Shown: positions 292 to 25,686, counted from the first letter of the stretch. The stretch is DNA of 64,000 nt from Minisyncoccota bacterium (GCA_035583355.1 DATEZQ010000003.1:65844-129843), one strand, 5' to 3'. Notes: generated from the letters alone by a model not told the origin. Numbers and translations are program-made.

Positions 292-714
292 AGAAGTCCT
301 TGATGACTTTCAATATGTCCTATATACTCTATACAGATACGAATCAGCTATGTGAACAATATGAGGCCTCAAAAATTTGGCCCAAATCATCACTAAAATA
401 GCAACAAAAAGTTCGACCCTGTTCTTTCCACAACAAAAAAATACGTTTTCCTCCAACAATTCAACCCCGAGTACGCTTTGCGACTTGGGGTTTCTCTTAT
501 CTGCGAGCGCTCTGGCTCACCATATCCCGCGTATAGCGCGCTCACGAAACAAACTAACAGCCACCAGGGTTGCCCCAACATATCGCCCCATCCACAGTCG
601 AGGCGTTATTACGCCCCAACTAGGCCGGGAGGCCGAATCAGACTCAGGAGCTCGAACAATTTCTCTTACGGCAGTAAAGGAAAAATCGCTCAGTTGAGCG
701 ATTTTCAATGTCCT

Positions 715-1488
715 TTACAGCTGTAAGAGAAATTGTTCGAGCGAGTATTCCAGGTCGCATTCTCCTCGATGGGCACGATGATACATGTCCTTGAGATCAT
801 CGAGGCGCGTACATATTTCCGTAGGCTTATACTTCTCCATTCCCCTGAGACCACTATTGTATGAATTTGCCTTTATTCCTGACGCAAGTGCATCAGCCTT
901 TGGAAGCGTAGCAACCGCGGTAAGCGTCTTAAATGCCCAAAAGAGCATTCCATGAAGAGCCTCCATCGCCTCACCCTTTCGCCTACTTTTTTCAAACTCT
1001 ACCCAGGCTGTCTTTCGATCGCGAACCATTGCAGCGTCCGCGAGCGCAAATGCGGAAAAATCATTCTTCTTTTCTTTTTTCGGTAGGGCAAATTGTGATA
1101 TTTCTCCATACTTTTCAAGCTTTGCGAGCAATGGCTTCTTTGGAGCAACTTCACGTATAAGAACGATATGGTCACTCGTAAGATCCTGTTTACTATAAAA
1201 CGCTTCTCCGGCAGGATTTGAGAGGATATCATCAAATATAATGATATTCTTGGGTGCAAACAAATTTCCCTCGACGAATGACTCCAATGCGGCCTCCTCA
1301 GTGAAGTTTTGGTCGTCAAATTTTACAAAATTAGCCCCAGGAACCTCTTCCTGTAGTCGCGCAACCGCGCTACGCAACGCCGAGCGGGCTGCGAGCGTAT
1401 CATCTCCAACAAATGCGAGCAACATACGGCTATTATATAGGCTTTTAAGGGTTATGGGAATACGGGGATAACTTAAATATTCTCTCAA
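715..1488 (-). CDS. holA: DNA polymerase III delta subunit-like protein (HolA-like), short form
   Basis: 257 aa. The N-terminal LLAFVGDDTLAARSAL region and the C-terminal AFALADAAMVRDRKTAWVEFEKSRRKGE region resemble HolA domains I and III. Assignment by family resemblance only. Confidence 0.45.
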   Translation of the reverse strand: MREYLSYPRIPITLKSLYNSRMLLAFVGDDTLAARSALRSAVARLQEEVPGANFVKFDDQNFTEEAALESFVEGNLFAPKNIIIFDDILSNPAGEAFYSKQDLTSDHIVLIREVAPKKPLLAKLEKYGEISQFALPKKEKKNDFSAFALADAAMVRDRKTAWVEFEKSRRKGEAMEALHGMLFWAFKTLTAVATLPKADALASGIKANSYNSGLRGMEKYKPTEICTRLDDLKDMYHRAHRGECDLEYSLEQFLLQL

Positions 1489-3185: not shown

Positions 3186-3208
3186 AAAAAAGCGCACTGC
3201 GCTTTTTT
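3186..3208. terminator. Rho-independent terminator (aaaaaagcgc-act-gcgctttttt)
   Basis: Palindromic GC stem with flanking A and T runs, directly downstream of the minus-strand gene ending at 3207. Confidence 0.7.
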
Positions 3209-3773
3209 ATACTCGTGACTTTAGACGCTCTAGGTCAGCAATCGCCATCTTAAGCATAACCTCAATCTTGTCGAGTGTAGGTTTCTCTTCTTTTTCATCA
3301 TGTTCTTGGATATCGTCGATATCTTCGGAAATCTCGTCGATATCCTTTGAGATTTCGTCGATATCTTCGGAAATCTCATCAACATCCTTTGAGATCTCAT
3401 CGACATCCTCGGAAATCTCGTCGATATCGTCTCCAATTTCTCGAACCTCAGCTTGGATACTATCGATATCTTCCTCAACACCCTCCAGACTTTCTGTATG
3501 GCGATTAACCGACATCTGGATAAAAATGGAGAGGTAGATTGCCTCGAGTGATACTGCGGTTGTGAGCACAAGCATTACCGTTGAGGAATTTGCCCCGAGC
3601 ATGACAAAAACAAAGGAAGCACAAAAGAGGAGGGTGTGGACCACAAGTGATGCCGGTGAACCAATCCACGTTGTTGCCTTCTCGGCGATAGAACGCACGC
3701 GGGGCACCTTTTCAGTTACTATATTTATACTTTCTTTTATTTTCACCATAAATGTATTATACTCCAATTTCAA
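3207..3773 (-). CDS. DUF1003-like small membrane protein with a C-terminal acidic heptad-repeat array ([E/K]D[I/V]DEIS repeated about 6 times)
   Basis: Two TM segments, then IQMSVNRHTE (reminiscent of the DUF1003 core), then tandem acidic heptads encoded by 21-bp DNA repeats, then a coiled-coil tail. Confidence 0.55.
   Translation of the reverse strand: MKLEYNTFMVKIKESINIVTEKVPRVRSIAEKATTWIGSPASLVVHTLLFCASFVFVMLGANSSTVMLVLTTAVSLEAIYLSIFIQMSVNRHTESLEGVEEDIDSIQAEVREIGDDIDEISEDVDEISKDVDEISEDIDEISKDIDEISEDIDDIQEHDEKEEKPTLDKIEVMLKMAIADLERLKSRV
3317..3440. repeat. Tandem 21-bp coding repeat (gatatcttcggaaatctcgtc / gatatcctttgagatttcgtc alternating, about 6 units)
   Basis: Read directly. Two alternating unit subtypes give an effective 42-bp period. 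The repeat lies inside the CDS 3207..3773 and is a potential slippage or recombination length-variation site. Confidence 0.8.
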
Positions 3774-6253: not shown

Positions 6254-6283
6254 AAAAAACAACAGAGGTCCTGTTGTTTTTTT
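6254..6283. terminator. Bidirectional rho-independent terminator (aaaaaacaacag-aggtc-ctgttgttttttt)
   Basis: Perfect stem with A and T runs on both sides. On the minus strand it would terminate the polA transcript after element C. Confidence 0.7.
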
Positions 6284-6293
6284 GAATTTGTAA

Positions 6294-6416
6294 AAACAAA
6301 GAATTGGGATGAAATTTGCCTTTCTGGAACCGCGCGAATTCTAGCGAGCCGTATGCATAATACGGTGAGCGAATCGCGCGGCGAAGAAAGGTAAAGTTCG
6401 CCCAATTATTTGTTTT
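6294..6416. ncRNA. Candidate structured RNA element, copy C (three nested stems plus apical hairpin ccgta-tgcataa-tacgg)
   Basis: Same architecture and junction motifs (atgaaa, GAATTC-tAGCGAG-hairpin-TGAGCG, CGAA) as the copies at 11298 and 16563, with compensatory stem changes. Located 17 nt downstream of the polA stop. Confidence 0.5.
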
Positions 6417-6432
6417 TTGTTCGCCAAATTTT

Positions 6433-8862
6433 TTATTTCTTAGTGAGTGAGCCCCAGCGCTGACCACTGGCACACGTAACAAGTAAAGGTATTGATGCGC
6501 CGGGGGTGTTACGATGCACTCCCTCCATCGCCTCCTTAATGATCTCCTTTGCACGCTTCACCACCTCAGGCTTATCAACGACTTCGAAGATCAGCTCGTC
6601 ATGTACTTGGAGCAAGAGCTGTATCTCCTTTTCAAGCCCAGCGGCCTTAATTGCAGTATCAACAGCAATCATCGCTTTCTTCACAAGATCTGCGGCAGTA
6701 CCCTGGAGTGGCGCATTCATGGCCATACGCTCCGCCATCGCTTTAACGAATGGGATCTTCGACTTCAGGTTTTGGAATGGGCGCCTTCGTCCAAACATTG
6801 TTGTGGTATACCCCAACTTCGTCGCTTCCTTGAGTACATTCTCGAGATATGCACGAATGGTTGGGAATGCTGCGAAGTACTGATCGTGAAATTCCTGTGC
6901 CTCACTGCGCGGAACACCGAGTGATGTGGCGAGTGCAGACACTCCCATGCCATAGAGGATTCCGAAGTTAATGGTCTTCGCGCGTCTGCGCTGCATATCA
7001 CTCACCTTATCCTCTGGCACATTGAATACACGAGATGCAACAGCAGCATGGATGTCCGCCCCACTTTCAAATATATCGCGAAGATGTTTATCTCCAGAAA
7101 GCATCGCAAGTACACGAAGCTCAATCTGTGAGTAATCGAATGCGAGTAAGAGCTTCCCTCTTGGTGCGATGAATGCGTCGCGAATCAACTCCCCATATCC
7201 ATCGCGCACGGGAATATTTTGGAGATTTGGATCAGTCGATGAGAAGCGACCAGTGACTGTTCCGTCTTGATGCAACTTCGTATGCACACGATTCTGCTCA
7301 TCAGCGAGTGGTGGTAGCGCATCGATATAGGTCGTGAGTACTTTTTGGATCTCGCGATATTCAAGAATCTTCTCAATAACGGGATGTGCATCTTTCATTT
7401 TCTCAAGCTCAGATTCTTTCGTAGAGCGCGCGCCACCTCCTGCAGTCTTACGAATCCCCTTCTCGGAAATCCCGAGCTTCTCGAACAAGACAACTCCAAG
7501 CTGCTTTGGCGAATTAATATTGAACTCCTCACCCGAAAGCGTATAGATTGTCTTACGAATACGCTCAATCTTCGTGTGATATTCTTTCGATAATTTCGCT
7601 AAGTGATCCTTGTCGAGCATAATACCACGCGACTCAAGTTCTTGAATGATAGGTATAAGCGGAAGCTCTATCTCCTCATAGAGTTTTTTGAGATCGAGCT
7701 TCTTAAGCTCTATCTCAAGTTTTTCCATGGCGGCAATAAGTGATGTTGTGTTCGTGTAGCTACAGATGGTCTCCTTTGTTGCGCCACCCTTCTCAGAATC
7801 AATAAGCCAATAGGCGATTTGCGCCTTACGTAACAGTACAGCATCATGCGGCTCATCATCAAAAGGCGCCGGAATGACTATCGCCTCTTTTTCTACAGGA
7901 ACCCCTTTTACCTCAGCAGCAAGCGCCTTAAGACGTGCCCCCAATGTACGAAATTCAAGTTCTTGGAAAAGTGCAAGTGCTTTGTCGACCGTAAATGCAT
8001 CGATCCAGGTATCCTTAGGTAATTCATATTTGATTGGCGCATCACGACGAATTGTTGCAAGCATCTTTGAAAATACTGCATTATCCGCCCCCTCCTTGAG
8101 GAGTTTAATGGTACGCGGCTTCAGACCTTCCTTGAGCATTCCCTCTTCGTCCTTTTCAAGTCGAGCATATATATCCTCTACTGAACCAAATCGTGAAACG
8201 ATATCCGACGCAGTCTTCTCACCAATACCATCAACACCGGGAATGTTATCCGATGTGTCACCACAAAATCCCTTATAGTCAGGCAAGAGTGCAGGCACAA
8301 AACCATATCGTTCTTTGACCGCAGCGGCATCATATACGACAACATCAGAGAGTCCCTTGCGTAGTGTGAATACGCGCACGCGCTCGCCATCGACGAGCTG
8401 TAATGAATCAGCATCTCCAGTTACAATAACAACTTCAAGGTCTTTGATATCTTTTGTTTGCTCGACAATCGTACCGAGCATATCATCACCCTCGAAGCCC
8501 GGTGCATCATAAATTGGGATATGGAGCGCCGCAAAAACATCTCGAGAGCGCTGAAGTTGCGCCTTGAGTTCATCGTCTGCTTTTACACGCGTGCCTTTAT
8601 AATCAGCATACTCAACATGACGAAAAGTTTTACCGGGAAGATCATAACATGCGGCGATGTAATCTGGACGGTAATCACCGATTGCACGAATGAGCATCGT
8701 GAGGAGTCCATAGAGTCCCCCTGTTGGTTCTCCTTGCTTGGTCGACATATCAGGGAGTGCATGATACGCGCGATGAATAAGTGCGTGTGCGTCAAAGAGC
8801 ACTAAACGCTTTTTCCCTGTTTTCTTCATGAGGACATTATACAGGGTTAACGTAATCGGCAA
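6433..8862 (-). CDS. polA: DNA polymerase I (5'-3' exonuclease, 3'-5' exonuclease-like and polymerase domains)
   Basis: 809 aa. N-terminal LVLFDAHALIHRAYHALP (5'-3' exonuclease). C-terminal RRRAKTINFGILYGM and LLQVHDELIFEV polymerase motifs. Confidence 0.92.
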   Translation of the reverse strand: MPITLTLYNVLMKKTGKKRLVLFDAHALIHRAYHALPDMSTKQGEPTGGLYGLLTMLIRAIGDYRPDYIAACYDLPGKTFRHVEYADYKGTRVKADDELKAQLQRSRDVFAALHIPIYDAPGFEGDDMLGTIVEQTKDIKDLEVVIVTGDADSLQLVDGERVRVFTLRKGLSDVVVYDAAAVKERYGFVPALLPDYKGFCGDTSDNIPGVDGIGEKTASDIVSRFGSVEDIYARLEKDEEGMLKEGLKPRTIKLLKEGADNAVFSKMLATIRRDAPIKYELPKDTWIDAFTVDKALALFQELEFRTLGARLKALAAEVKGVPVEKEAIVIPAPFDDEPHDAVLLRKAQIAYWLIDSEKGGATKETICSYTNTTSLIAAMEKLEIELKKLDLKKLYEEIELPLIPIIQELESRGIMLDKDHLAKLSKEYHTKIERIRKTIYTLSGEEFNINSPKQLGVVLFEKLGISEKGIRKTAGGGARSTKESELEKMKDAHPVIEKILEYREIQKVLTTYIDALPPLADEQNRVHTKLHQDGTVTGRFSSTDPNLQNIPVRDGYGELIRDAFIAPRGKLLLAFDYSQIELRVLAMLSGDKHLRDIFESGADIHAAVASRVFNVPEDKVSDMQRRRAKTINFGILYGMGVSALATSLGVPRSEAQEFHDQYFAAFPTIRAYLENVLKEATKLGYTTTMFGRRRPFQNLKSKIPFVKAMAERMAMNAPLQGTAADLVKKAMIAVDTAIKAAGLEKEIQLLLQVHDELIFEVVDKPEVVKRAKEIIKEAMEGVHRNTPGASIPLLVTCASGQRWGSLTKK

Positions 8863-8944
8863 CAGTAAGGGAAAGTATTACAGCACATAGCCATTTTATG
8901 TATATCTCCTGTCGTATATTCCATTTTCCATATATAATAACTTC

Positions 8945-9448
8945 ATGATAAAAGGCCATGAATATACCATTGATTCACTCAATGCACTCGACGACTTTGT
9001 TGCTCATGAATTCCTCCCCTTTCTCACCCCAAGCGACGATGGCGCAACAGTAATCGCACTCACCGGAGATCTCGGCTCAGGAAAAACTGCATTCGTGAAG
9101 TCTGTTGCAAAACAATTCGGGATTACTGACCACATCGTTTCCCCCACATTCATTATCGCAAAATTCTATCCACTTCCTGGATCCGAGAAACCCGAAGAAC
9201 TCTTCGAAAATGCCCAAGAAGAACGTGCGCATCCACATTTCCATGAACTCGTGCATATTGATGCCTACCGCATGGAGGATCCGAAGGAAGCAGAAGTACT
9301 CAGACTCCCTGAGCTTCTCAATGATGAACGTAAGATCATCTTCATTGAGTGGCCCGAGCAGCTTGGTGCTGAACTCCCAAAGGGAAATATCACCCTACAA
9401 TTCAAGTTTGTCGATGAAACGACACGCACTATCACACAAACAAACTAA
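8945..9448 (+). CDS. tsaE: tRNA threonylcarbamoyladenosine biosynthesis protein TsaE (YjeE)
   Basis: P-loop VIALTGDLGSGKTAFVKSVA followed by SPTFII, typical of TsaE. Confidence 0.8.
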   Translation: MIKGHEYTIDSLNALDDFVAHEFLPFLTPSDDGATVIALTGDLGSGKTAFVKSVAKQFGITDHIVSPTFIIAKFYPLPGSEKPEELFENAQEERAHPHFHELVHIDAYRMEDPKEAEVLRLPELLNDERKIIFIEWPEQLGAELPKGNITLQFKFVDETTRTITQTN

Positions 9449-9451
9449 ACA

Positions 9452-9477
9452 AAAACTCGCCCAGTGGCGAGTTTTTG
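9452..9477. terminator. Bidirectional rho-independent terminator (aaaaactcgcc-cagt-ggcgagttttt)
   Basis: Perfect 11-bp stem between the convergent tsaE and the 9483..11099 gene. Confidence 0.7.
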
Positions 9478-9482
9478 TTTAA

Positions 9483-11099
9483 TTATGAGGATACAGTATA
9501 CGCTCCCGGCAAACCAAATTCTTCAACTTCTTCACCCTTCACTGAGTCGAGCTCCTGCTCGAACTGATGAATGACCGGGCTTTCGGGCTGCATCTGTGGG
9601 ACTACAACCATAACGGGTGCGGTCTGCTTACTAGCGAGATCAGCCTTGATAGAAAGTGCGGCGGCCTTTGCTTTTTCCTCTGCCTCTTTAAGACGAGCCT
9701 GCGTAGCAATGTACCACTCCTTTGCACGAATTGCACCAATAACACTTGCAATCGCAACATTGAGGATGATAAGCCACATAATCATCGTAGTAGGAAATGT
9801 TCCTGATGATGTAGTCTTGTTTGAAGATGAGTTACTAAAGAGTGATCCAGACTTTGCTGCTGCAACACCGGCAACCATCTGTTCATTATTCTTTGTCGTG
9901 AAGATGAGCTTTGCATTTACTGAAGGAATACCCTTTGCATCCGCAGTTGTCATAGTGACAATACTGAATGAACGCGCATCACCCTTCTTGATTGCACCAA
10001 TCGGGAGCACGTACGTACGTGAACCATCTTTTCCTTCCTTCACGAGCAACTCGTTAGCAGTAGAATCGCCGATATAAATGAGTGTGCTTGGGAGCACCAC
10101 CTCAAACTGCGCCTTCTTCGCCGCATCGATGCGGTTATATGCATAGGCGAGCTTATACTCGATAGTCTGGTGTGTGCCCGCCTTGCCTACAGCCTTCACG
10201 GAGACCGTAACATCCTTCACTGTAGAGCCAACGCTACCAGAGAGATCACTACCTGAAACCTTTGTATCGGTGGTATCCTTTTTTGTTGTGTTTGTATCTG
10301 AAGATCCGCCGAATGACCCAAAAAGGCCACCATTTGATCCTGAACTTGCACTACGTGTTGCATTTGTCTTTGTATCCACTGCTCCTGCGGTCTGGTTCTT
10401 CTTCTCTTCCACGACAGGCTTTACTCCCGTGGTCTTGAAGCTCTTGATTGAACCACGTACGATTCCTCGATCATTTTCTGCAGCAATACGATAGTAATAC
10501 GTAGTACCCGGGGTAAGACCGTGGAGCTCTGTCTTCACTTCACCACCATCACGATTTGCTGCGTGATCTGAAGTAAGTGCACCGACATTCTTATCTGTTC
10601 CCCACTCAAACCAATAACGTGCAGCACCATTATGAGGAGCGACATATCCGTGCATGGTCACACCAATATCCTTAAGCGAAGTCACGCCCCTTGTCTGTGC
10701 GATAACAATCGCTTCAGCCGGAACATCATATGACTTTGTAGTAAAATATATTGTCTTACCTGCAATATGGTCCTTCTGGTTCTCTGCAACAACACGATAG
10801 AAATACTGTGTTGAAGGAGCAAGGCCGCGGAGCGTATAGGTGCCCGTACGTGTATAACGTGTACCAACGGTGCGCTCAGGTGACTTAAAGACAGTGTCTT
10901 CAACACTACCCGAAACACCCCATTCAAACCAATACACATTGTCAGGAGTATCACCAGCAGTGATGTCAGCTGAAATCTGCGCACTATTGTACGTGATTTG
11001 CACTACAGGCTTCGTTTCCACAGAAAGTGAACCAGCCGCAAAGACGGTGGCAGGAAGCACGAGAGAGAATATTGAGATAAGGTAGATTATCTTTTGCAT
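9483..11099 (-). CDS. Surface protein: signal peptide, two fibronectin type III-like domains, Ser/Thr/Gly-rich linker, further domain, C-terminal TM anchor and charged cytoplasmic tail
   Basis: Signal MQKIIYLISIFSLVLPATVFA. Two Fn3-like blocks with Y.WFEWG...T.Y.YR..AEN signatures. TM MIMWLIILNVAIASVIGAI near the C-terminus. Confidence 0.65.
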   Translation of the reverse strand: MQKIIYLISIFSLVLPATVFAAGSLSVETKPVVQITYNSAQISADITAGDTPDNVYWFEWGVSGSVEDTVFKSPERTVGTRYTRTGTYTLRGLAPSTQYFYRVVAENQKDHIAGKTIYFTTKSYDVPAEAIVIAQTRGVTSLKDIGVTMHGYVAPHNGAARYWFEWGTDKNVGALTSDHAANRDGGEVKTELHGLTPGTTYYYRIAAENDRGIVRGSIKSFKTTGVKPVVEEKKNQTAGAVDTKTNATRSASSGSNGGLFGSFGGSSDTNTTKKDTTDTKVSGSDLSGSVGSTVKDVTVSVKAVGKAGTHQTIEYKLAYAYNRIDAAKKAQFEVVLPSTLIYIGDSTANELLVKEGKDGSRTYVLPIGAIKKGDARSFSIVTMTTADAKGIPSVNAKLIFTTKNNEQMVAGVAAAKSGSLFSNSSSNKTTSSGTFPTTMIMWLIILNVAIASVIGAIRAKEWYIATQARLKEAEEKAKAAALSIKADLASKQTAPVMVVVPQMQPESPVIHQFEQELDSVKGEEVEEFGLPGAYTVSS

Positions 11100-11105
11100 T
11101 CAAAC

Positions 11106-11133
11106 ATTCTACCATAATTATCATAATTGTCAA
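11106..11133 (-). promoter_or_regulatory. Putative promoter for the 9483..11099 gene (minus-strand TTGACA, 16-nt spacer, TAGAAT; short leader)
   Basis: Reverse complement reads cTTGACAattatgataattatggTAGAATgtttgaATG. Confidence 0.4.
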
Positions 11134-11297
11134 GCACTCAAAGGTCCATATTCCTAGCCTCCCCCTACCCTCAAACCCCTATAAATATAGCGATACTCCG
11201 GATTTTCCTCATAAATACCTCTTCAATTAACCCTATCTCTATACTTTATATATTGAAAAAGCCTTACAAATAAAGGGAATTTGAATTTCCACCCAGC

Positions 11298-11426
11298 AAA
11301 AAACCGCAGATTTTGGGTGCAGGTTGCCGTGCTGGAGACATGCGAACTCAAGCGAGATGGGCTCGGTGCCCATCGAGTGAGTCGCATGCCGAAGCATGGC
11401 AAGATGCGCCAAAATATACGGTTTTA
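11298..11426. ncRNA. Candidate structured RNA element, copy A (three nested stems plus apical hairpin gatgggc-tcggt-gcccatc)
   Basis: Abuts the pilB stop codon. Core AAGCGAG-hairpin-CGAGTGAGTC is shared with copy B. Stems covary with copies B and C. Confidence 0.5.
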
Positions 11427-13082
11427 CCTAGAGTCTATAAGCCCCACTGCGTCAGCGACCTCGCTGAGCGCAGTAACCCCATTTATAGCCTTTACGATTC
11501 CATCCTGTCTCATAGAGAGTAGCCCCTGTGGCTTTGCGGCCTCAACAATCTCATGCTCTGATGGATTTTTTGCAATAATCGCTTCAATTGCGCGATCCAT
11601 ACGGATTCCTTCGTAAATCGATATGCGCCCCTTGAATCCAATACCACTGCAAACCTCACAGCCTTTTGGACGGTAGAGTTGTCCAGAATATTTTAAATCT
11701 GGACGATACTTCGTAATCTCAGGAATCTCTCGCGCAAGTGCTTCTGCTTCATAACCCTCAGGAACATACGCCTCTTTACAATTTGGGCAAAGCTTACGCA
11801 CGAGACGCTGTCCAATCATAAAGTTAAGCGATGAGGGAAGAATTTTTGGATTCACTCCAATATCAATGAAGCGTGGAATAGCTCCCGCAGCAGAATTTGT
11901 ATGGAGTGTCGAAAGTACGAGATGTCCCGTAAGTGCTGCCTCTACGGCTACGCTTGCGGTTTCATTGTCACGAATTTCTCCAACCATCACAACATCAGGA
12001 TCTTGACGCACTGCAGCACGAAGCCCGGCTGCGAAATCGTAACCCTTACTATGATCAATCTGCGTTTGAGCGATACCGGTAACGTGATACTCGACAGGAT
12101 CCTCAATTGTTATTATTTTTATCTCAGGATCAAGCAACTTCTTCAGTGTCGCATACAGCGTCGTTGTCTTACCGGAACCTGTTGGCCCAGTTGTCACGAT
12201 CATACCATTAGGCTTACTGATCTCTTCAAGCATGATCTTGTAAAAGACCTCATCCATTCCAAGCGCCTCAAGCGGAACATTAATGGATTTAGGATTAAGG
12301 AGTCGCATCACGATTGACTGATTGTATGTTGAGGGCACGATTGAGACACGCACTTCAATATTGGTATCTCCGAGATGAATAGTGAATCGTCCATCTTGTG
12401 CCTCTGCAGTAACATTGAGCTTAATACCCGACATCAACTTCAATCGTGCGAGCATTTTCCTGTATGCCTCACTACTGATGTTTGCAACATCATAAAGTAT
12501 GCCATCAAGTCGATAACGAATACGCACCGAAAACTCTTCGGGTTCGATATGAATATCCGATATCCCCAATGCAACAGCACAGCCCATAACAATCTCTGCG
12601 ATTTGCGAAGTTGCGTGTGGACTATTCTGCTTCTTTATCTCCTCAAGCGCTCCGGTCACATCCTTGATCTGCTTGACCACACTAGAATATTTTCGGACCG
12701 TCTCTTCAGAAATACCGAGCGCTCCACCTGTTGTCGCAGTCGTATGTTGAGTTTCTTTATATACCTCAAGGGCTTTTGTAATCGCAAACTCTGAAGCAAG
12801 AAAAATTTCTGAATCAAGACCGTGGGTCTTTAAAAATGCAATAATGCCCTGGAGCTCAGGGTTATTCGGTGTCTGTGCGGCGATATGTGCTGTATGCCCA
12901 TCGAGGTCAAAAATAACAACACGCGCACGACGCGCAGTCTCTTCGTCAATGAGATGAAGGGCGGTGTTCTTAATAATGATAGCGTTGAGATTCACATAGC
13001 CAAGTTTGTAGCGTTCAGCCAAAATCTGCGCGAGGTCCTCAGCTTCGCGCTCACGGTGTTCAATAATTGGATCAATACCCAT
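11424..13082 (-). CDS. pilB: Type IV pilus assembly ATPase PilB (GspE family). The ORF track extends to 13310; the likely start is the internal Met at 13082
   Basis: Walker A GPTGSGKTTTLYA, Walker B region DPDVVMVGEIRD, His box LVLSTLHTN, and C-terminal tetracysteine CPNC...CEVC. The start is adjusted to avoid a 134-nt overlap with tdk. Confidence 0.85.
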   Translation of the reverse strand: MGIDPIIEHREREAEDLAQILAERYKLGYVNLNAIIIKNTALHLIDEETARRARVVIFDLDGHTAHIAAQTPNNPELQGIIAFLKTHGLDSEIFLASEFAITKALEVYKETQHTTATTGGALGISEETVRKYSSVVKQIKDVTGALEEIKKQNSPHATSQIAEIVMGCAVALGISDIHIEPEEFSVRIRYRLDGILYDVANISSEAYRKMLARLKLMSGIKLNVTAEAQDGRFTIHLGDTNIEVRVSIVPSTYNQSIVMRLLNPKSINVPLEALGMDEVFYKIMLEEISKPNGMIVTTGPTGSGKTTTLYATLKKLLDPEIKIITIEDPVEYHVTGIAQTQIDHSKGYDFAAGLRAAVRQDPDVVMVGEIRDNETASVAVEAALTGHLVLSTLHTNSAAGAIPRFIDIGVNPKILPSSLNFMIGQRLVRKLCPNCKEAYVPEGYEAEALAREIPEITKYRPDLKYSGQLYRPKGCEVCSGIGFKGRISIYEGIRMDRAIEAIIAKNPSEHEIVEAAKPQGLLSMRQDGIVKAINGVTALSEVADAVGLIDSR

Positions 13083-13144
13083 AGCTACATAATAACATAC
13101 ACGGAAAGATAAAACCGTCACAAGAACAGTGCTGAAGGAATAAG

Positions 13145-13167
13145 AAAAGGGCCCAATGGGCCCTTTT
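13145..13167. terminator. Rho-independent terminator (aaaagggccc-aat-gggccctttt) downstream of tdk
   Basis: Perfect palindrome between the tdk stop and the pilB start. Confidence 0.65.
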
Positions 13168-13176
13168 GGTCTACAT

Positions 13177-13788
13177 CTAACCCCTCGGGATGGAGTGACA
13201 TCGGCGACAACGTGCCTCGTACACCTTTTTATCTGTACCCGCGTCAGCCTCAATGCGCTCCTTCGAGAAAATATTCTTCTGGGTGAAACTTGCGGGGCTT
13301 GAGCATTCAAAACAGAATGCCTTTGTCTTCACCACTTCGTTTGCAAGTGCAAGGAAAGTTGCTACTGTCGCGAATGGACGACGCATGAAATCGAGGTCGA
13401 GACCAACAACTACGACCTGAAAATCCTTATCCTTATGCTCTTCAAGAAGGTTTGTCACCTCCTCAACAAGCCATTCCCCAAAGAACTGCACCTCATCAAT
13501 TGCAATGATGTGCGGATCCTGTTCATGCACCAACCGCCTGAACGTTTCCGCATCACTTACTGTGTGAGCAGGATGCTTCGCCGCAACGATGAATTTCTCG
13601 GAATCCTCTGGATCAAGGATGCGTGTCACCACATGATCCTCATAGCGCGTATCTACAGGTGACTTGATCACCAAGATGCGCTTTTTCACGATTTGCGCCC
13701 GCTTAATAAGACGCAGCAATTCCTCTGACTTGCCAGAGTACATAGGTCCTACAATTGCGGTAAGGGTTGCTTCTTGTGAGTTTTGCAT
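13177..13788 (-). CDS. tdk: Thymidine kinase
   Basis: P-loop GPMYSGKSEEL and C-terminal zinc ribbon CFEC...CRRCH, typical of type II Tdk. Confidence 0.85.
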   Translation of the reverse strand: MQNSQEATLTAIVGPMYSGKSEELLRLIKRAQIVKKRILVIKSPVDTRYEDHVVTRILDPEDSEKFIVAAKHPAHTVSDAETFRRLVHEQDPHIIAIDEVQFFGEWLVEEVTNLLEEHKDKDFQVVVVGLDLDFMRRPFATVATFLALANEVVKTKAFCFECSSPASFTQKNIFSKERIEADAGTDKKVYEARCRRCHSIPRG

Positions 13789-13931
13789 GGTGTGCTCCTT
13801 TATGTCTATGTTTACGATAACATGCCTATGTACTCAAAAGTATTTACATGCCTGTGGAGGAGATGTTATAGCACAACAGTAGAGCACATATTTTTCTAAA
13901 TACAAAATAACCACCCCGAATTATTGAGTGG

Positions 13932-14933
13932 TTATTTTAAATCAAAACCAAGATGCGTATATGCCTTCGGGGTCACGGTGCGACCTCGCGGTGTGCGCTC
14001 AATGAACCCTAGTTTAAGTAGGTATGGCTCATACACCTCCTCAATAGTTGCCATCTCCTCTGCCGTTGCAGCCGCGAGTGTGTTGAGTCCAACTGGTCCG
14101 CCATTAAATTTTTCTATCATGACCGTCAACAATTCACGGTCGGGAGTTCCAAGGCCAAGCTCGTCCACCTCAAGTAAAGCAAGTGCCTCGCGCACCACCT
14201 TCTCATCGAGTGGCACCTTGTGTACCTGTGCAAAATCTCGAGCACGCTTCAAAAAATGATTAGCGGTACGTGGTGTAAAACGAGCACGCTGCGCGATTGC
14301 GAGCGCTGCCCCCGGCTCAAGGCTCACGCCCAAGATATCCGCAGAACGCGTTACAATGCGTGCTATTTCATCGTTCGTATAGAACTCGAGACGAAACACG
14401 CCTCCACCAAAACGGGAGCGTAGTGGGGCAGATAATGCAGCAATACGTGTTGTCGCAGCAATGAGTGTAAATGCAGGGAGTTCAAGCTGAATAGTACGCG
14501 CCGATGGCCCCTTTCCAATAATGATATCAAGTACTCCTGATTCCATTGCTGGATAAAGCACCTCTTCAACCATCTTATTTAAACGGTGAATTTCATCAAT
14601 AAAGAGAATATCACCGGGATTCATGTTCGTTAGGAGTGAGGCAAGGTCGCCCACCTTTTCAATTGCAGGACCTGAGGTCACCTTGAGCTGCGACTTACTT
14701 TCCGATGCAATAAGATGTGCAAGTGTGGTTTTACCAAGTCCTGGAGGTCCATAAAACAATAGGTGTTCTGGAGGATGACCACGCTCCTTTGCTGCAGTAA
14801 GAAGGATATTCAAATTCTGTTTAATATGCTCCTGCCCCACATAATCACCCCACGACGAAGGCCTGAGTTTTTGATCAAGGAAAAGAGAATCATTCTTTCC
14901 GTTCGGTAAAATATTAGAGAGTTCACTTGACAT
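13932..14933 (-). CDS. ruvB: Holliday junction branch migration helicase RuvB
   Basis: LLFYGPPGLGKTTLAHLIA Walker A, DEIHRL Walker B, and a C-terminal winged-helix region. Confidence 0.92.
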   Translation of the reverse strand: MSSELSNILPNGKNDSLFLDQKLRPSSWGDYVGQEHIKQNLNILLTAAKERGHPPEHLLFYGPPGLGKTTLAHLIASESKSQLKVTSGPAIEKVGDLASLLTNMNPGDILFIDEIHRLNKMVEEVLYPAMESGVLDIIIGKGPSARTIQLELPAFTLIAATTRIAALSAPLRSRFGGGVFRLEFYTNDEIARIVTRSADILGVSLEPGAALAIAQRARFTPRTANHFLKRARDFAQVHKVPLDEKVVREALALLEVDELGLGTPDRELLTVMIEKFNGGPVGLNTLAAATAEEMATIEEVYEPYLLKLGFIERTPRGRTVTPKAYTHLGFDLK

Positions 14934-15284
14934 AAAATTTGTTTATGATATACTGCTTCCGGTTTAAAGTTGCACAGAAACAGGTTGTCTTGCGCACTTC
15001 TCTCACAGTATAACAGGAGAAATAGCGATGCTCCTATCGCGCTATATTCTCTTGTCCCAAGAAAGACTTGACAACTTTAAATTATCATGATATAGTTCAT
15101 GAGCAAACAAGTTCGCTGTTCTCACCCTCAAACGATTAGAGCCCCACAGGCTTCCATGATGTAGCTCCAAAGACTTATTGGTTCGGCGCGCAAGCGACCG
15201 TTGCTGGCAAACTCTTCAGGAATGCATTTCACCATAGATTCCGGTCTATGGTAATCGATTGAGGGTAAGGACCACGAAAGCAAG

Positions 15285-15314
15285 AAAAACTCGCGCAAGC
15301 GAGTTTTTCTTTTG
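15285..15314. terminator. Bidirectional rho-independent terminator (aaaaactcgc-gcaa-gcgagttttt)
   Basis: Perfect 10-bp stem with a GNRA-like loop and T-run, inside the 640-bp ruvB-upstream spacer. Confidence 0.6.
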
Positions 15315-15359
15315 TATTAACACAAATATACGCCAATGAAACAGCGAGGAATTTTTCGC

Positions 15360-15450
15360 AAGTTGCCTTTACTGGAATGAGCACCGCAAGCGAGGTGTAT
15401 GTGTTATACATTGAGCGCGGAGCGGAATGAAGCAAAGGCAAATTGTGGAA
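15360..15450. ncRNA. Degenerate fourth copy (D) of the structured element (ttgcctttactgg ... AAGCGAG-hairpin-TGAGCG ... aagcaaaggcaa)
   Basis: Retains the P2-like arm pair, the AGCGAG / TGAGCG junctions and an apical hairpin (tgtat-gtgtt-ataca). The outer stem is poorly conserved. Confidence 0.3.
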
Positions 15451-15522
15451 AATAACCGCTGCTGTAATATTGCAAGCGGAACGGTGCATTTGCGCAAGCG
15501 GGTGCCAGGCACCGCTTAAAAT

Positions 15523-15557
15523 AAAATACCAACTGCGCGCAGCTGGTATTTTATTTA
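15523..15557 (-). terminator. Rho-independent terminator (aaaataccaactgcgc / gcgcagctggtatttt) downstream of the acidic protein gene
   Basis: Long near-perfect stem (one mismatch) with a U-run on the minus strand. Confidence 0.6.
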
Positions 15558-15570
15558 TCGCGCAAATGCG

Positions 15571-15885
15571 CTAGAATCCTTCTTCGAGCGGATCCTCGTC
15601 GGCCTTAAAGTTATAACGAGCCTCATCATCCTCGTCTGTATAGAAATCTTCCTCATCATCCTCTTCCTCATCTTCACCAACTTCTGGCTTCAAGGTATCT
15701 CCGAACTCATCAGTAAGAGAACCAAACTCATCCTCCTCTACAGGGAGCACGTCTTCATGGAGTGCATCGATATCAACCTCAACCAATTCCTCGTCTTCAA
15801 GAAAATCATCGCCCGTTGGGCCGAATTTGGTTTGCTCTTCTTCAAGCTCATCATCGGGCAAAATGCCTACTGCGTCGTCACTCAT
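15571..15885 (-). CDS. Highly acidic small protein (104 aa, about 45% Asp and Glu). It occupies the position where ruvA is normally found
   Basis: Sequence MSDDAVGILPDDELEEEQTKF...EDEEEDDEEDFYTDEDDE. No HhH or RuvA motifs. Confidence 0.55.
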   Translation of the reverse strand: MSDDAVGILPDDELEEEQTKFGPTGDDFLEDEELVEVDIDALHEDVLPVEEDEFGSLTDEFGDTLKPEVGEDEEEDDEEDFYTDEDDEARYNFKADEDPLEEGF

Positions 15886-15967
15886 GGCGTCTTAATGTAT
15901 TTAATCCTAATAGATTAATTGGAATATAACACTGAAAATTGATTTTGTGCAAGCCTAAAAATAAAGC

Positions 15968-15976
15968 TGTGGATAA
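15968..15976 (-). promoter_or_regulatory. Isolated perfect DnaA box (TGTGGATAA) just downstream of ruvC
   Basis: Exact 9-mer consensus. A single occurrence could be chance. Confidence 0.25.
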
Positions 15977-15984
15977 CTAACGTT

Positions 15985-16494
15985 TTAGAGTACCCCACTT
16001 CGGATCATTGTGGCTCGATGTGCGTTTTCGGCGAGCGCAGCAAGTCCGAGTGCAATAGCATCAAACTCATCATCAAGCCTTTTTTCCATTGGTAGTTTTG
16101 TAAGTTTTTCTACCATAAACATCATCTGTGCCTTTGTCGCTTTTCCATAACCCGTCAGCGCAATCTTCGCTGCACCAGGATGCACTTCATGAATAGGAAC
16201 GTGAGCTTTTGTTGCTGCGTAGAGTAATGCACCGCGCACCTCCGCCACTTGGAGTGCAGTCTTTGCATTATTTGAAAAAAATAATCCTTCAATCACAAAA
16301 AGCTCCGGCTTATGTATTTCGATCAAGTGGGCAATAGTTTCGACGACTGTCGTTAGGCGATCAACGAATGCAGATTTTGCAGGTGTTTCAATACATGTCG
16401 AGAAGCGCACCTCTGCACCCCTTCCATCACCATCTAATACTGCGACACCACATCTCCCAAACCCTGGATCAACTGCGAGGACTTTCATAAACAC
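15985..16494 (-). CDS. ruvC: Crossover junction endodeoxyribonuclease RuvC
   Basis: MKVLAVDPGFGRCGVAVLD N-terminus with catalytic Asp, plus HLIE..KPELFVIEGLFF core. Confidence 0.9.
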   Translation of the reverse strand: MFMKVLAVDPGFGRCGVAVLDGDGRGAEVRFSTCIETPAKSAFVDRLTTVVETIAHLIEIHKPELFVIEGLFFSNNAKTALQVAEVRGALLYAATKAHVPIHEVHPGAAKIALTGYGKATKAQMMFMVEKLTKLPMEKRLDDEFDAIALGLAALAENAHRATMIRSGVL

Positions 16495-16562
16495 AGAGTA
16501 CCACAGAATCGAGTGGAATAAAAAGTTGTACTTGGTAAATTTTTTTGAAACAAAAAACCACA

Positions 16563-16692
16563 GATTTTGGATGAAATTTGCTTTGTTGGAGGTAAATGAA
16601 CTCTAAGGAGATGGGCTCGGTGCCCATCGACTGAGTCATTTACCGAAACAAAGCAAAGCTCGCCAAAATATGTCGTTTACCTGAAAAATTAA
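16563..16692. ncRNA. Candidate structured RNA element, copy B (three nested stems plus apical hairpin gatgggc-tcggt-gcccatc)
   Basis: Lies in the 295-bp yebC-ruvC intergenic region. Its apical hairpin is identical to copy A, and P2 and P3 carry compensatory substitutions. Confidence 0.5.
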
Positions 16693-21817: not shown

Positions 21818-22957
21818 TTACCCTCGCATTGGCATAAGTAGATAACGGAATGAACCATCAGCTACCCCTTCAATAACGATAGGCCTTCCGGGACCTGCAC
21901 ACTTAAATACCACTGAATCAGTTGCAATAACACTGAGCACATCATTTAAGTAACGTGTATTTAAAAGATATTCTACAGATTCACCAGTGAGTACGGATTC
22001 GATCTGTTGCGAAGTCTCACCAACTTCATCGTTTCGGGCTTCTACTTCAAATACCCCTTCAGAAGGCATGATTTTTAGTCTAACCTGGTGTAATTTACCC
22101 GAAAAAACAGTTGTAATCTTTAATCGATCAATAAGATCTTGTTTTAATAGCGTCGCTTCCGAAGTTACCTGTTTTGGAATAATCTGATGATAATCAGGGA
22201 AAATACCATCAACAAGACGTGTTGTAAGACGGAAACGTCCACAAACAAACGTAAGCTGCGTGCGTGAGAAGTAGATATTCACCTGTTCATCAACACCTTC
22301 AAGTGCGCGACTGATCTCAGTAACATTCTTCGAAGGAATAAGCACGCGAATCTCTTCTTCAGGTACTGACTTAAGAGGAACCTTCTTTTCTGCGAGTCTC
22401 GAGGAGTCGGTCGCTACAAAATACAGCGTACCGTGCTCTATAGTCATCAACACTGATGCAAACTCGGGTTTAACGTCAGTTACCGCTGCGGCATATGAGG
22501 TGGCCTTAAAAGCGCTAATAAGGGTCTTTGCGGGCAAGGTGATATGTGTCCCCTTTTCAAGAAAGGGAAGGGTTGGAAAATCCTCATATCCATAACCCTT
22601 AATGAGTGTGGAGTAGTTCTCACCGGTGATTGTAAGATGTTCACCAACTTGCTCGAGGGTGACATTACGTTCCTGTGGGAGATTATTTAGGAATGAGCCC
22701 AATGTATCTGCGGGGATGGCAAGTACTCCTTCACGCTCAACACGTGCAGGGAGCTCGATCTCAATACCGAGATCGAGATTCGTTGCACGCAATCGCAACG
22801 ACGTATTGTTTGCAATAAGAAGTACGTAGCGCAAAACAGGAAGTGTTGCTTGCTTCGCTGTGAATCGTTCAGCAGTTAAGAGTGCGTCCTTCAGATTTAG
22901 TTTTACACATTCGAGCTTCATATTCTTTATATATAAATTCATTATTATTAAGAGCAC
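21818..22957 (-). CDS. dnaN: DNA polymerase III beta sliding clamp
   Basis: 379 aa with a three-domain clamp-like organisation. Lies immediately downstream of dnaA. Confidence 0.85.
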   Translation of the reverse strand: MLLIIMNLYIKNMKLECVKLNLKDALLTAERFTAKQATLPVLRYVLLIANNTSLRLRATNLDLGIEIELPARVEREGVLAIPADTLGSFLNNLPQERNVTLEQVGEHLTITGENYSTLIKGYGYEDFPTLPFLEKGTHITLPAKTLISAFKATSYAAAVTDVKPEFASVLMTIEHGTLYFVATDSSRLAEKKVPLKSVPEEEIRVLIPSKNVTEISRALEGVDEQVNIYFSRTQLTFVCGRFRLTTRLVDGIFPDYHQIIPKQVTSEATLLKQDLIDRLKITTVFSGKLHQVRLKIMPSEGVFEVEARNDEVGETSQQIESVLTGESVEYLLNTRYLNDVLSVIATDSVVFKCAGPGRPIVIEGVADGSFRYLLMPMRG

Positions 22958-23401
22958 TGTGGGTATGTGTATAGAAGTGATTTAGTGAGGCTAGTTAAGC
23001 ATCTTTTTCATTTCATTACTGTGGATAAACTGCCGAGCAGAATGACTTATCAACAGTAGGGAGACATACCAACAATCTCATCCCCATTACTCTTCTAGAA
23101 TACCTTAAAGTTACCCACTTGGAAACACACAGGAAAACACTCACTCTCCACCATCTCTCCCCAATGTGCGTAAGTATGTTAAAAGGTGACAGCTGAAAAA
23201 CCATTACATAGCAACCTCTTTTGCAAGTATTGGAGTATATTCAATGTAGTTCATTTGTACATGAAGTTACATATAAAACTAATTTGAATTATTTCATTTC
23301 TACCACTTAGAATACTAGTATCAAGAAGATATTTTTTAAGAAAGTCCTAATATATATTTATTGATACTTTCCTTCTAATTTAAAAAGCGCTTACGCGCTT
23401 T
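22958..23401. promoter_or_regulatory. oriC part II (dnaA-dnaN intergenic): DnaA boxes at 23020..23028 (TGTGGATAA) and 23047..23055 (TTATCAACA, 1 mismatch), plus a long AT-rich tract at about 23200..23380 (candidate DUE)
   Basis: Boxes and AT-rich tract read directly. This arrangement is typical of bipartite Firmicutes-type origins. Confidence 0.6.
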
Positions 23402-23405
23402 TTAA
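23384..23405. terminator. Rho-independent terminator (aaaaagcgc-ttac-gcgcttttt) overlapping the dnaA stop
   Basis: Perfect palindrome with flanking A and T runs. Confidence 0.65.
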
Positions 23406-24817: not shown

Positions 24818-25068
24818 TGATTTCTAAACACCGAGTCCAATTTGATTCAGTGGTCAAAAATTTTTTGTAAGCGTACAAGGGCCGGTTAACGTGTGCACAT
24901 TATAGCGGAGGGAATGCCATTTGCGCTATGGGCGCTTTTGTTCATAACCCTGTGGATAACGTGTTGATATGAAGATTACGTGAAAAGACTGCGCATAGCA
25001 AGTTGACGCTACCGATTATGTAATTTCACATAATAAAAAACAAAACAATTTTATGTTTTGTTTTTTTT
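24818..25068. promoter_or_regulatory. oriC part I (upstream of dnaA): perfect DnaA box at 24951..24959 plus AT-rich tract at 25021..25068
   Basis: TGTGGATAA read directly. A T-rich run (acaaaacaattttatgttttgttttttttc) flanks it. Confidence 0.55.
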
Positions 25069-25287
25069 CTAAGGCATATCAACGAGATTTTTTTGCCACG
25101 GATGACAGCGGGTGATACGAAGTAACCCTTTCCCTACCCCTTTCACAGCACCATGTTTTTCTATTGCAAGCTCCATGTACTCCGAACAAGTGGGGTGCAT
25201 TGCACAAGTACTTCTTCCACTTGAAAAGATACTCTTATCAGGAGAAAGAAAAGTTTGATAGAAGCGAATGATGTATTTAGTGAGCAT
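25069..25287 (-). CDS. yidD: Membrane protein insertion efficiency factor YidD. The ORF track extends to 25455; the start taken is the Met that overlaps the rnpA stop
   Basis: FYQTFLSPDKS...CAMHPTCSEYMELAIEKHG matches the YidD signature. It overlaps the rnpA stop by 11 nt. Confidence 0.7.
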   Translation of the reverse strand: MLTKYIIRFYQTFLSPDKSIFSSGRSTCAMHPTCSEYMELAIEKHGAVKGVGKGLLRITRCHPWQKNLVDMP

Positions 25288-25672: not shown

Positions 25673-25686
25673 TGAGTAGGGTTATT

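Follow-up and report, generated by a model that had tools for sequence, protein, structure and literature searches.

A hairpin that recurs between genes, with stems that change in sequence and keep their pairing, raises the question of whether it is a structured RNA, a signal in the mRNAs of its neighbours, or a repeat that spreads through the genome. The initial annotation of the 64-kb window (the whole stretch of DNA that was analysed) had described three full copies and one degenerate copy of a ~125-nt element and had proposed them as a candidate novel structured RNA family.

Copies, fold and folding strand

An imperfect hairpin of ~128 nt occurs exactly four times in the window, each time on the + strand and at the annotated place. 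A covariance-model search with filters off on both strands found no fifth copy in the 64 kb. The extents, the + strand scores under the four-copy covariance model and the helices were as follows.

6292..6419, + strand: copy C, full element; 132.6 bits; MFE -65.3 kcal/mol, z -8.9
P0 6292-6298/6411-6417 and P1 6302-6308/6401-6407, + strand: outer helices of copy C
P2 6315-6325/6385-6395, GGA/GA loop 6326-6328/6383-6384 and P3 6329-6336/6375-6382, + strand: middle of copy C
tandem GA 6346-6347/6367-6368 and P4 6348-6354/6360-6366, + strand: apex of copy C
11300..11427, + strand: copy A, full element; 136.5 bits; MFE -69.7 kcal/mol, z -7.3
P0 11300-11306/11419-11425, P1 11310-11316/11409-11415 and P2 11323-11333/11393-11403, + strand: helices of copy A
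P3 11337-11344/11383-11390 and P4 11356-11362/11368-11374, + strand: inner helices of copy A
15340..15465, + strand: copy D, degenerate; 104.1 bits (model R1), 81.8 bits (model R2)
16554..16681, + strand: copy B, full element; 126.7 bits; MFE -60.9 kcal/mol, z -8.7

Each copy folds as a single long hairpin, with z-scores between -5.7 and -8.9 against dinucleotide shuffles. The annotated architecture was correct, including stems P1 to P4 and the conserved loops; the annotated ends were not, since a copy-specific outer stem, P0, extends the hairpin by ~10 nt on each side. The core unit is ~110 nt long (P1 to P4, ATTTTGG...CCAAAAT) and sits at the apex of P0. The P4 hairpin is identical in copies A and B. 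Copy D, at most 59% identical to any other copy, has a decayed P3 and GAACTC box and retains P0, P1, P2, P4 and the GGA/GA loops.

The proposed search for more copies succeeded, with pattern scans and the covariance model recovering ~40 beyond the window in related genomes and metagenomes of CPR bacteria, which are very small and have not been cultured. No known family matches the element: the window had no match in Rfam 15 at the gathering threshold, nothing overlapped any copy at E up to 10, and a scan of 12 related loci returned tmRNA only. Identity between copies within a genome averaged 68% and reached 85% at most, and the best match of a copy was often found in a different genome at a non-orthologous locus. 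Two subfamilies exist, whose members recur in different genomes at unrelated loci, and tandem, partial and degenerate copies occur.

The compensatory base changes noted in four copies proved real across 39 aligned copies. Indeed, 95.6% of pair cells were paired, compared with 71% in shuffles and 32-43% with slid partners; double changes were present at 47 of the 50 pairs, and the observed pairing values were reached by 0 of 500 shuffles. The accompanying statement that covariation is not expected from repeat amplification was too strong, as REPINs and integron attC sites are repeat families with a selected single-stranded hairpin and the same covariation pattern.

The folding strand was resolved as the + (model) strand. 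This strand had 131 G-T against 23 A-C juxtapositions, pairs 30-108 and 31-107 were conserved wobbles (26 G-T, 0 A-C), and MFE was lower on the model strand in 39/39 copies (mean -64.3 versus -50.6 kcal/mol), upholding the argument from G-T pairs originally made for the plus strand. In canonical terminators of these genomes the sense strand folds at least as well as its complement, and the strand asymmetry of the element is therefore not an artefact of composition. These data show that selection preserves folding on one particular strand, which is antisense to the adjacent gene, and holds constant four purine-rich asymmetric loops, which are nearly invariant across diverged copies.

Gene context and transcription signals

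The folding strand was antisense to the neighbouring genes in ~37 of 39 copies, including those in ribosomal-protein operons, and orientation followed the gene even at convergent genes (L009, L034). In 31/37 copies the stop codon of the upstream gene fell between -5 and +3 relative to the end of the element, such that P0 usually starts at, or includes, this codon. The relevant features of the window are listed below.

6433..6435, - strand: polA stop codon, 14 nt before copy C (its P0) on the sense strand
6254..6283, - strand: canonical intrinsic terminator after copy C; sense MFE -12.5, antisense -12.0 kcal/mol
11424..11426, - strand: TAA stop codon of pilB (T2SSE ATPase; ORF 11424-13310, Pfam T2SSE), inside P0 of copy A, offset +1
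11298..11303, - strand: U6 tract immediately following copy A in the sense direction (A6 of the + strand)
15282..15311: bidirectional terminator that separates copy D from the conserved non-coding region ahead of ruvB
16552..16557, - strand: U6 tract immediately following copy B in the sense direction (A6 of the + strand)

Copy B is flanked by yebC and ruvC and copy D lies upstream of ruvB, so that the gene context, with polA and pilB, was as annotated. The association with DNA metabolism drawn from it was coincidental, as the upstream genes elsewhere include tuf, ribosomal-protein, tsf, release-factor, ndk, eno and other genes. Several copies have the next start codon at a distance of 13-17 nt or are flanked by coding sequence. 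One copy precedes a tmRNA gene by 3 nt and is sense-oriented. Within the window the folding strand is the leading-strand template.

On the sense strand the order is polA, copy C and the terminator at 6254..6283. The U6 behind copy A gives this copy a terminator-like tail. T-runs of at least 5 on the sense strand followed the hairpin in 10/39 copies, including A, B and C of the window, and were absent wherever a copy stands within a ribosomal-protein operon. For C, D and the L044 copies, the element is situated between a stop codon and a separate canonical terminator; at the eno site of L044 this terminator is intact, and the element lies outside it. Identity of the family as intrinsic terminators was rejected because of the scarcity of U-tracts and the separate terminators of C, D and the L044 copies. 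On the folding strand, no position-specific promoter signal was detected upstream (information content < 0.31 bit at every position), a -10-like hexamer was present 16-23 nt upstream in 13/36 copies versus 7 in a control window, and a T-run of at least 5 followed the hairpin in only 3/39. An independent sRNA gene was likewise rejected, on the missing fixed-distance promoter signal and the rarity of such T-runs.

Gain and loss of copies between close relatives

The closest sequenced relative is the sister genome SKS1.bin43, whose contig 11 is syntenic with window positions 5-19 kb and whose PolA is 86% identical. All four window sites are empty in this genome, which carries at least 13 copies elsewhere; the terminator at 15282..15311 is conserved there without copy D. 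In a more distant relative (PolA 74% identical) the stop codons of polA and eno are covered by copies, and another (73%) has none. Copies in the S10 operon are present in SKS1.bin43 and L015 and absent from L047 and L048, and the L4-L23 junction was met in both an empty and a filled form. With tuf, the variably occupied sites are polA, eno, L4-L23 and the S10 operon, a MITE-like presence/absence polymorphism. Copies at the same site are more diverged than the flanking coding sequence, with 94 double, 16 single and 28 broken pairs separating them. Copies thus come and go quickly between close relatives, like a small mobile element and not like a fixed RNA gene.

The outer stem and U-tract of the pilB site, TAAAACCGTA...TGCGGTTTTTT, recur in the empty allele of SKS1.bin43, where they enclose a different interior of 39 nt. 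Since the stem and tail are already present there, this site is consistent with targeting of a hairpin apex.

The claim of a novel structured RNA family therefore stands in part. The family is genuine, absent from Rfam and strongly covarying, and its behaviour is neither that of a set of ncRNA genes nor that of a conserved cis-regulator of repair genes: the folding strand has no upstream promoter signal and is antisense to flanking genes, the four sites are empty in the closest relative, and subfamilies recur at non-orthologous loci along with tandem, partial and degenerate copies.

The ends of the element are variable. The outer-stem consensus is loose (AARAC...GTYTT), many outer stems are unique, and the terminal triplets of 39 copies were AAC/GTT in 16, GAC/GTC in 6, AAT/ATT in 5 and other in the rest. 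No general target-site duplication was found, the longest flanking direct repeat averaging 5.2 nt versus 4.9 nt in shuffles. Gapped local alignment of flanks gave p < 0.05 in only 5/38 copies, two of which represent one orthologous locus and one a tandem artefact. Transposase, recombinase and reverse transcriptase domains were not found among window ORFs of at least 150 aa and four shorter ORFs adjoining copies. The absence of near-identical copies within any genome counts against a recently active mobile repeat.

Likeness to known systems and candidate explanations

Like REP/BIME elements and the REPINs mobilised by RAYT (an HUH Y1 transposase), the element forms many interspersed extragenic palindromes per genome at gene 3' ends or between cistrons, keeps its hairpin by compensatory change, is carried in mRNAs and is patchy between relatives; some REP/REPIN sequences act as terminators or stabilisers. 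In contrast to the REP doublet of 20-40-nt units, it is an uninterrupted hairpin of ~128 nt in which four asymmetric loops are conserved. The alignment revealed no repeated REP-type sub-unit or inverted doublet among the nested P0-P4, nor a 5' tetranucleotide (GTAG-type) head; orientation to the gene is near-uniform, the host is a CPR bacterium, and no RAYT gene was seen in the 64-kb window or in 8-22-kb pieces of relatives. The 127-bp enterobacterial ERIC/IRU and the Neisseria Correia elements are imperfect palindromes of similar length in transcribed intergenic regions, with hairpin effects on mRNA. Copies of both are found in either orientation and resemble one another far more closely within a genome; defined inverted terminal repeats and a TA duplication further mark the Correia elements. 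The element lacks these traits and has no detected sequence relationship to either, a distinction made without direct sequence comparison. Of classical MITE traits, it shows presence/absence polymorphism, and target-site duplication, near-identical copies and a related autonomous element (in the window) were not found. IS1397/ISKpn1 (REP loops), IS110-family elements (REPs) and group IIC introns (terminators, attC) target hairpins, and the element likewise lies inside one at pilB, but it is ~110 nt long without coding capacity and at the L044 eno site stands outside the terminator. Small hairpin repeats of mitochondria have spread into intergenic regions of a compact genome and have no transposase known for them, at least as outlined in PMC2800124; those belong to another domain of life and are unrelated in sequence, and the present element has strong strand asymmetry and conserved loops.

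We give about an even chance to the reading that these hairpins are a new family of interspersed, strand-specific structured repeats in CPR (Minisyncoccota/Paceibacterota), with REP/REPIN-, ERIC- and MITE-like behaviour. The hairpin and conserved loops of the folding strand would be the substrate of a putative trans-acting protein during copying or recombination, most likely as single-stranded DNA by analogy with integron attC bottom strands or REPINs. Insertion immediately downstream of a stop codon, or into the apex of a terminator hairpin, may be what these compact genomes tolerate with least harm. Near-uniform orientation could reflect strand-specific insertion, or survival with the reactive strand on the less exposed strand, which would be the transcribed template strand and also the leading-strand template. 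Within mRNAs, whether in 3' UTRs or between cistrons, the element would be carried along passively as a weaker reverse-complement hairpin that might double as a terminator where a U-tract follows. Against this reading stand the lack of a cognate enzyme among the window ORFs scanned and of a general target-site duplication, and the looseness of the terminal repeat; so do the sense-oriented copy beside tmRNA and the location of the folding strand on the leading-strand template, as IS200/IS605-type single-stranded DNA transposons have the opposite strand bias. Invariant loops and a well-paired, locus-specific P0 could also mean selection at each locus for a host function. More tentatively, and with a clearly smaller probability, the element may be a new single-strand-specific module in CPR, either the substrate of a new hairpin-recognising ssDNA recombinase or transposase, in which case cargo would be placed at the apex of hairpins behind stop codons, or a protein-bound structured RNA complementary to highly expressed genes or operons.

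Structured ncRNAs that are expressed from the folding (+) strand and run antisense to neighbouring gene 3' ends are an unlikely explanation, whether as cis-antisense regulators or as a multicopy trans-acting RNA with a protein that reads the GA-rich loops. The wobble asymmetry and nearly invariant purine-rich loops with tandem G-A (UGGAG/CGAA, CGAG/UGAG) are what folded RNA typically shows, the -10-like hexamer is found in about a third of copies, one copy adjoins and is co-oriented with a tmRNA gene, and copy D is just downstream of a + strand ncRNA-like unit. These features are set against the lack of a positional upstream signal and of an Rfam relative, the rare folding-strand T-runs, the nearby start codons or coding flanks at several copies, and the dispensability of all four window copies in the sister genome. 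A similarly low probability attaches to a cis-acting element of the sense mRNA, such as a 3'-exonuclease shield, an RNase III-type processing site or (part of) an intrinsic terminator. Position makes co-transcription with the upstream gene certain, since copies lie in 3' UTRs or between cistrons and the outer stem takes in the stop codon, and the distribution of sense T-runs, the copies between stop codon and terminator, and the gene-tied orientation favour such a role. However, on the sense strand the 131 wobbles become A-C mismatches (versus 23 G-U), the conserved loops are pyrimidine-only, real terminators of these genomes show the opposite asymmetry or none, and orthologous genes in close relatives manage without the element.

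Least probable by far are attC-like sites, that is, bottom-strand ssDNA hairpins for an integron-type tyrosine recombinase scattered behind chromosomal genes. As in attC, a single-strand-specific imperfect palindrome (57-141 nt) extends over the ORF 3' end and folds on the antisense strand, with conserved extrahelical bases and an unpaired spacer adjoining the outer stem. Conserved RYYYAAC/GTTRRRY boxes, a cassette array and, among window ORFs scanned, an integrase domain are missing, the AAC/GTT core is limited to 16/39 copies, and the neighbours (polA, pilB, ruvB, ruvC, tuf, ribosomal-protein genes) are housekeeping genes in conserved synteny, not cassettes. The element is also most conserved at its centre, the reverse of attC sites, in which conservation is highest at the ends.

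Copies of the element and conservation of its fold

The initial annotation reported four copies of a nested hairpin in the window. All four were present and could be aligned end to end, and the covariance model placed them as follows.

6292–6419, + strand, copy C
11300–11427, + strand, copy A
15340–15465, + strand, copy D (degenerate)
16554–16681, + strand, copy B

RNAalifold applied to the four copies recovered the proposed stems P1–P4 and added an outer stem, P0, lying about 10 nt beyond the original borders. Folded individually, every copy gave a single long, imperfect hairpin (z-scores -5.7 to -8.9 relative to dinucleotide shuffles). R1, the covariance model built from the four copies, scored them at 104–137 bits on the + strand and, run with filters off on both strands of the 64 kb, detected no copy besides these; R2, the model built from 39 copies, likewise returned four copies over the window and none more. 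A weak model match at 639–751 was rejected as a near-perfect palindrome unrelated to the element. The suggested comparison with known families gave no match of the copies to Rfam at the gathering score or at E up to 10, and neither tRNA genes nor Rfam families at the gathering score were found across the 64-kb window.

An IUPAC pattern of the conserved loops matched at 10 places in the MAG of the sister genome SKS1.bin43 (JAJZQJ01) plus one other CPR MAG of the genome collection. The remaining matches, at loci L005, L012, L014 and L016, were chance-like and did not match the model. A relaxed pattern matched 25 metagenome contigs, and element copies were absent from the viral contigs searched. 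The covariance-model search for further copies, also proposed earlier, found them in related genomes and metagenomes. No relevant report was found in the literature on repeats or structured RNAs of CPR/Saccharibacteria, or for the conserved 13-mer. PolA of the window is identical to a protein assigned to a Candidatus Paceibacterota MAG and encoded on a 259.5-kb contig; Candidatus Paceibacterota is now a synonym of the phylum Minisyncoccota, CPR.

Pairing statistics were taken over 39 aligned copies, and on this alignment the compensatory base changes claimed from the window alone proved real. Standard pairs occupied 95.6% of pair cells, versus 71% in column shuffles and 32–43% with slid partners, and double changes occurred at 47 of 50 pairs; none of 500 shuffles reached the observed measures. 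Four unpaired motifs were near-invariant, namely UGGAG opposite CGAA, a bulged A, GAACUC-NA-GC-GA-G and U-GA-GC-GAGU-C, and tandem G-A pairs are possible in two of them.

Several known motifs were considered for these sequences and rejected. A kink-turn was dismissed on inspection, the tandem G-A being flanked by a 1-nt or displaced 2-nt bulge and not the 3-nt bulge of a K-turn. The 9-mer in common with group II intron domain V (GAGCCGUAU) sits in the variable P4 stem of some copies only, and the Chi-like GCTGGAGG would have to be on the other strand to serve as a Chi site. A putative 11-codon ORF read from the folding strand (ATG...CTGGAG...GAACTCTAG) was rejected by alignment inspection because its ATG is missing in about one quarter of copies, one copy carries a frame-shifting base, and variation tracks pairing and not codon position.

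Shorter or diverged hairpins at three loci of relatives (L007 6052–6154, L008 1778–1880 and L010 1905–2028) keep the UGGAG/CGAA loop with different stems, e.g. GGAUUUUUCGYG...CGCGAAAAAGACAGCGG. The strict pattern probably misses part of the family.

The folding strand and the neighboring genes

The strand on which the element folds had been left open. G-T pairs outnumbered A-C mismatches by 131 to 23 on the + (model) strand. Wobbles were conserved at pair 22-116 (U-G in 34 of 39 copies, plus two G-U) and at pair 61-79 (G-U in 28 of 39), and pairs 30-108 and 31-107 together held 26 G-T and no A-C. The minimum free energy was lower on the model strand in 39/39 copies, with means of -64.3 versus -50.6 kcal/mol. 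A mutational or background bias behind the G-T excess was rejected, because the GC skew of the flanking DNA is opposite to the G-T bias of the element and in 13 canonical terminators of the same genomes the sense strand folds as stably as its complement or more so. With background excluded, the wobble counts and folding energies settle the question for the + strand. This asymmetry provides a clean, testable handle on whether the antisense strand acts as RNA or as single-stranded DNA.

The genes flanking the window copies are all on the - strand, and the folding strand is opposite to the neighboring genes in about 37 of the 39 copies. On the model strand the 3′ end of the element adjoins or overlaps a stop codon, which lies at -5 to +3 of the element end in 31 of 37 copies (TAA in 26, TAG in 11). 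A tie to DNA-metabolism or DNA-repair genes, proposed from the window, did not hold: the genes upstream of copies elsewhere include tuf (EF-Tu), rpsJ (S10), rplW (L23), rplD (L4), rpmC (L29), rplN (L14), rpsM (S13), tsf (EF-Ts), prfA/B (release factor), ndk, RNR (ribonucleotide reductase), lemA, prepilin peptidase and eno, and several copies lie inside S10/spc ribosomal-protein operons. The observation itself is confirmed and extended; its reading as a new structured RNA family linked to repair genes has partial support only.

At the ends of transcription units the hairpin is often followed directly by a T-run on the sense strand; 10 of 39 copies have one, A, B and C among them, and those inside ribosomal-protein operons have none. 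Copies C and D and those in locus L044 are followed by a separate canonical terminator. The only clear copy co-oriented with its neighbors is in L010 (6514–7551), where smpB is followed by 66 nt, the element in sense (folding-strand) orientation, 3 nt and the tmRNA gene; if transcribed from upstream, this copy would be part of a pre-tmRNA leader.

The position of the window copies relative to replication was read from the following genes.

21818–26744, dnaN and dnaA (-) and yidC (+), flanking a 1.2-kb gap at the cumulative GC-skew minimum

The gap is the probable replication origin. With dnaA, dnaN and yidC surrounding the skew minimum at about 23–25 kb, the four copies are all on the same side of the origin, at distances of 8–19 kb, with the folding strand serving as the template for the leading strand. 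To the right of the origin, at 27–42 kb and 48–63 kb, most genes are on the - strand, head-on to replication as judged by skew. The 27–42-kb block may be an inserted type IV secretion island, because it encodes a TraG/VirB4-like ATPase and many ORFs without a Pfam match.

Turnover of copies between relatives

Contig 11 of SKS1.bin43 is syntenic with window 5–19 kb (tyrS-yebC-ruvC-orf104-ruvB-tdk-pilB-fn3-tsaE-polA), and its PolA is 86% identical to that of the window. The model, run with filters off, found no copy on this contig at any of the four sites; elsewhere SKS1.bin43 has at least 13. At the pilB site, TAAAACCGTA...TGCGGTTTTTT is common to both genomes and encloses 39 nt folding as a sense-strand terminator in SKS1.bin43 and a 113-nt core instead in the window. 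In SKS1.bin43 the polA site holds a hairpin terminator and the yebC-ruvC site a 55-nt spacer with a simple terminator. At the orf104-ruvB site about 290 nt including copy D are missing from SKS1.bin43, and the following terminator and non-coding region are conserved. A relative with 74% PolA identity carries copies over the polA and eno stop codons, and both are absent from one with 73% identity. Copies after tuf, S10 and L23 are likewise present in some relatives and absent from others, and the L4-L23 junction is filled in one genome and reads TAAatcatATG in another.

Copies within a genome averaged 68% identity (maximum 85%), and the nearest relative of a copy was often at a different locus in another genome. 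Two subfamilies, GAAAU.../AAAGUUC and GCAGG.../AAGAUGC, cross genomes. Same-site copies diverged more than the flanking coding sequence (e.g. 78% vs 89% and 68.5% vs 91% identity), with 94 double changes, 16 single changes and 28 broken pairs, a ratio more suggestive of replacement or conversion than of stepwise compensation. Some copies are tandem, truncated or degenerate, and a shorter related variant exists. Flanking direct repeats or target-site duplications were not general among copies, and a scan of window ORFs of 150 aa or longer, together with four shorter ORFs adjoining copies, found no transposase, recombinase or reverse-transcriptase domain.

A significant flanking direct repeat was present at one locus only, the L23-L2 junction (L008 2849–3010; L015 3740–3930). 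The end of rplW, its final codons and stop, occurs there three times, in direct orientation, inverted as the 3′ arm of the outer stem, and in direct orientation again downstream, so that the 3′ arm could pair with either neighbor.

These data are consistent with a family of interspersed repeats evolving by birth and death, in which selection acts, on one strand, on a single-stranded hairpin and its asymmetric loops. The element and the upstream gene are certainly transcribed together, the mRNA containing the hairpin in its weaker, reverse-complement form. That the element acts primarily in this sense mRNA is nevertheless unlikely, as the wobble statistics speak against it. An antisense structured RNA, transcribed from the folding strand, is similarly improbable. 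The 50 positions preceding the element on the folding strand carried no position-specific signal, each having an information content below 0.31 bit; 13 of 36 copies had a -10-like hexamer between -25 and -12, versus 7 in a control window. Consensus promoter matches in the examined region were no commoner than in shuffles. In several copies the upstream flank is the start codon or coding sequence of the next gene. This lack of a promoter signal and the dispensability of the copies both speak against an antisense RNA.

Since the strand of the selected fold is neither mRNA nor lagging-strand template, we infer that the fold would be recognized by a protein while the element is copied or recombined, probably as single-stranded DNA. 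The uniform orientation might then come from a mechanism that acts on one strand, or from survival where the less exposed strand is the one that folds, as has likewise been argued for attC orientation in chromosomal integrons, and the 3′ hairpin apex or the position just past a stop codon may be the one place where a compact genome takes an insertion without harm.

Known repeat systems and other features of the window

The element behaves like the REP/REPIN, ERIC and MITE families but lacks a REP unit and has neither a general target duplication nor near-identical copies. Like integron attC sites it folds on the antisense strand and overlaps ORF ends, a rare combination, but its terminal boxes are not conserved, AAC/GTT being present in 16 of 39 copies, and neither a cassette array nor, among the window ORFs scanned, an integrase was found. 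It fails defining tests of each of these systems and is classed as a kind of interspersed palindromic repeat specific to a CPR lineage.

CPR genomes are very small and tightly packed and are thought to be repeat-poor. Copies of this element of about 128 nt occupy spacers within ribosomal-protein operons and follow core genes such as tuf and polA. Turning over between close relatives and yet keeping a precise one-strand fold, the element therefore speaks for some undescribed machinery of propagation or recognition in the lineage. It lengthens 3′ UTRs and is open to misannotation as an ncRNA gene or terminator. It probably also breaks assemblies, because the closest S10 homologues (proteins P0121–P0124, 89–99% identical) are all on contigs of 1.4–4.4 kb, which suggests that repeats in the S10 operon interrupt short-read assembly. 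Strand-specific selection without a transcript signal, in core operons of minimal genomes, is testable.

The rpsJ-rplC spacer (L008 4648–4967; L015 1688–1977; L047 10415–10818; L048 440–810) measures 290–400 nt in all relatives examined, whether or not the element is present. Part of it folds strongly (L015 1830–1977, z -7.7), and it may be a leader or another RNA.

A non-coding region of about 170 nt, situated upstream of ruvB (window 15095–15315, + strand; L042 3400–3625, - strand) was about 95% identical between the window and SKS1.bin43 in an alignment judged by eye, exceeding the nucleotide identity of coding flanks in other relative pairs. Its few differences are in loops or compensatory (3 pairs). 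With a long closing stem and an internal bubble it looks similar to 6S RNA; it had no match in Rfam. A promoter-like TTGACA-17-TATAGT (15068–15096, + strand) precedes it and a terminator (15282–15311) follows; copy D is on the same strand, 28 nt farther on.

Two near-perfect palindromes, each of about 40 bp and with no sequence relationship to the element, are centered on terminator-like hairpins at window 652–742 and L008 1895–1990 (MFE -71 and -52 kcal/mol, z -11 and -13). Their presence suggests ongoing mutation of these genomes by inverted duplication around hairpins.

One repeat was found within a coding sequence.

3295–3440, five tandem 21-nt (7-codon) repeats inside ORF 3207–3773 (- strand)

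This ORF has weak DUF948 and MCP-signal matches, and its 7-codon repeats are typical of a coiled-coil repeat protein.
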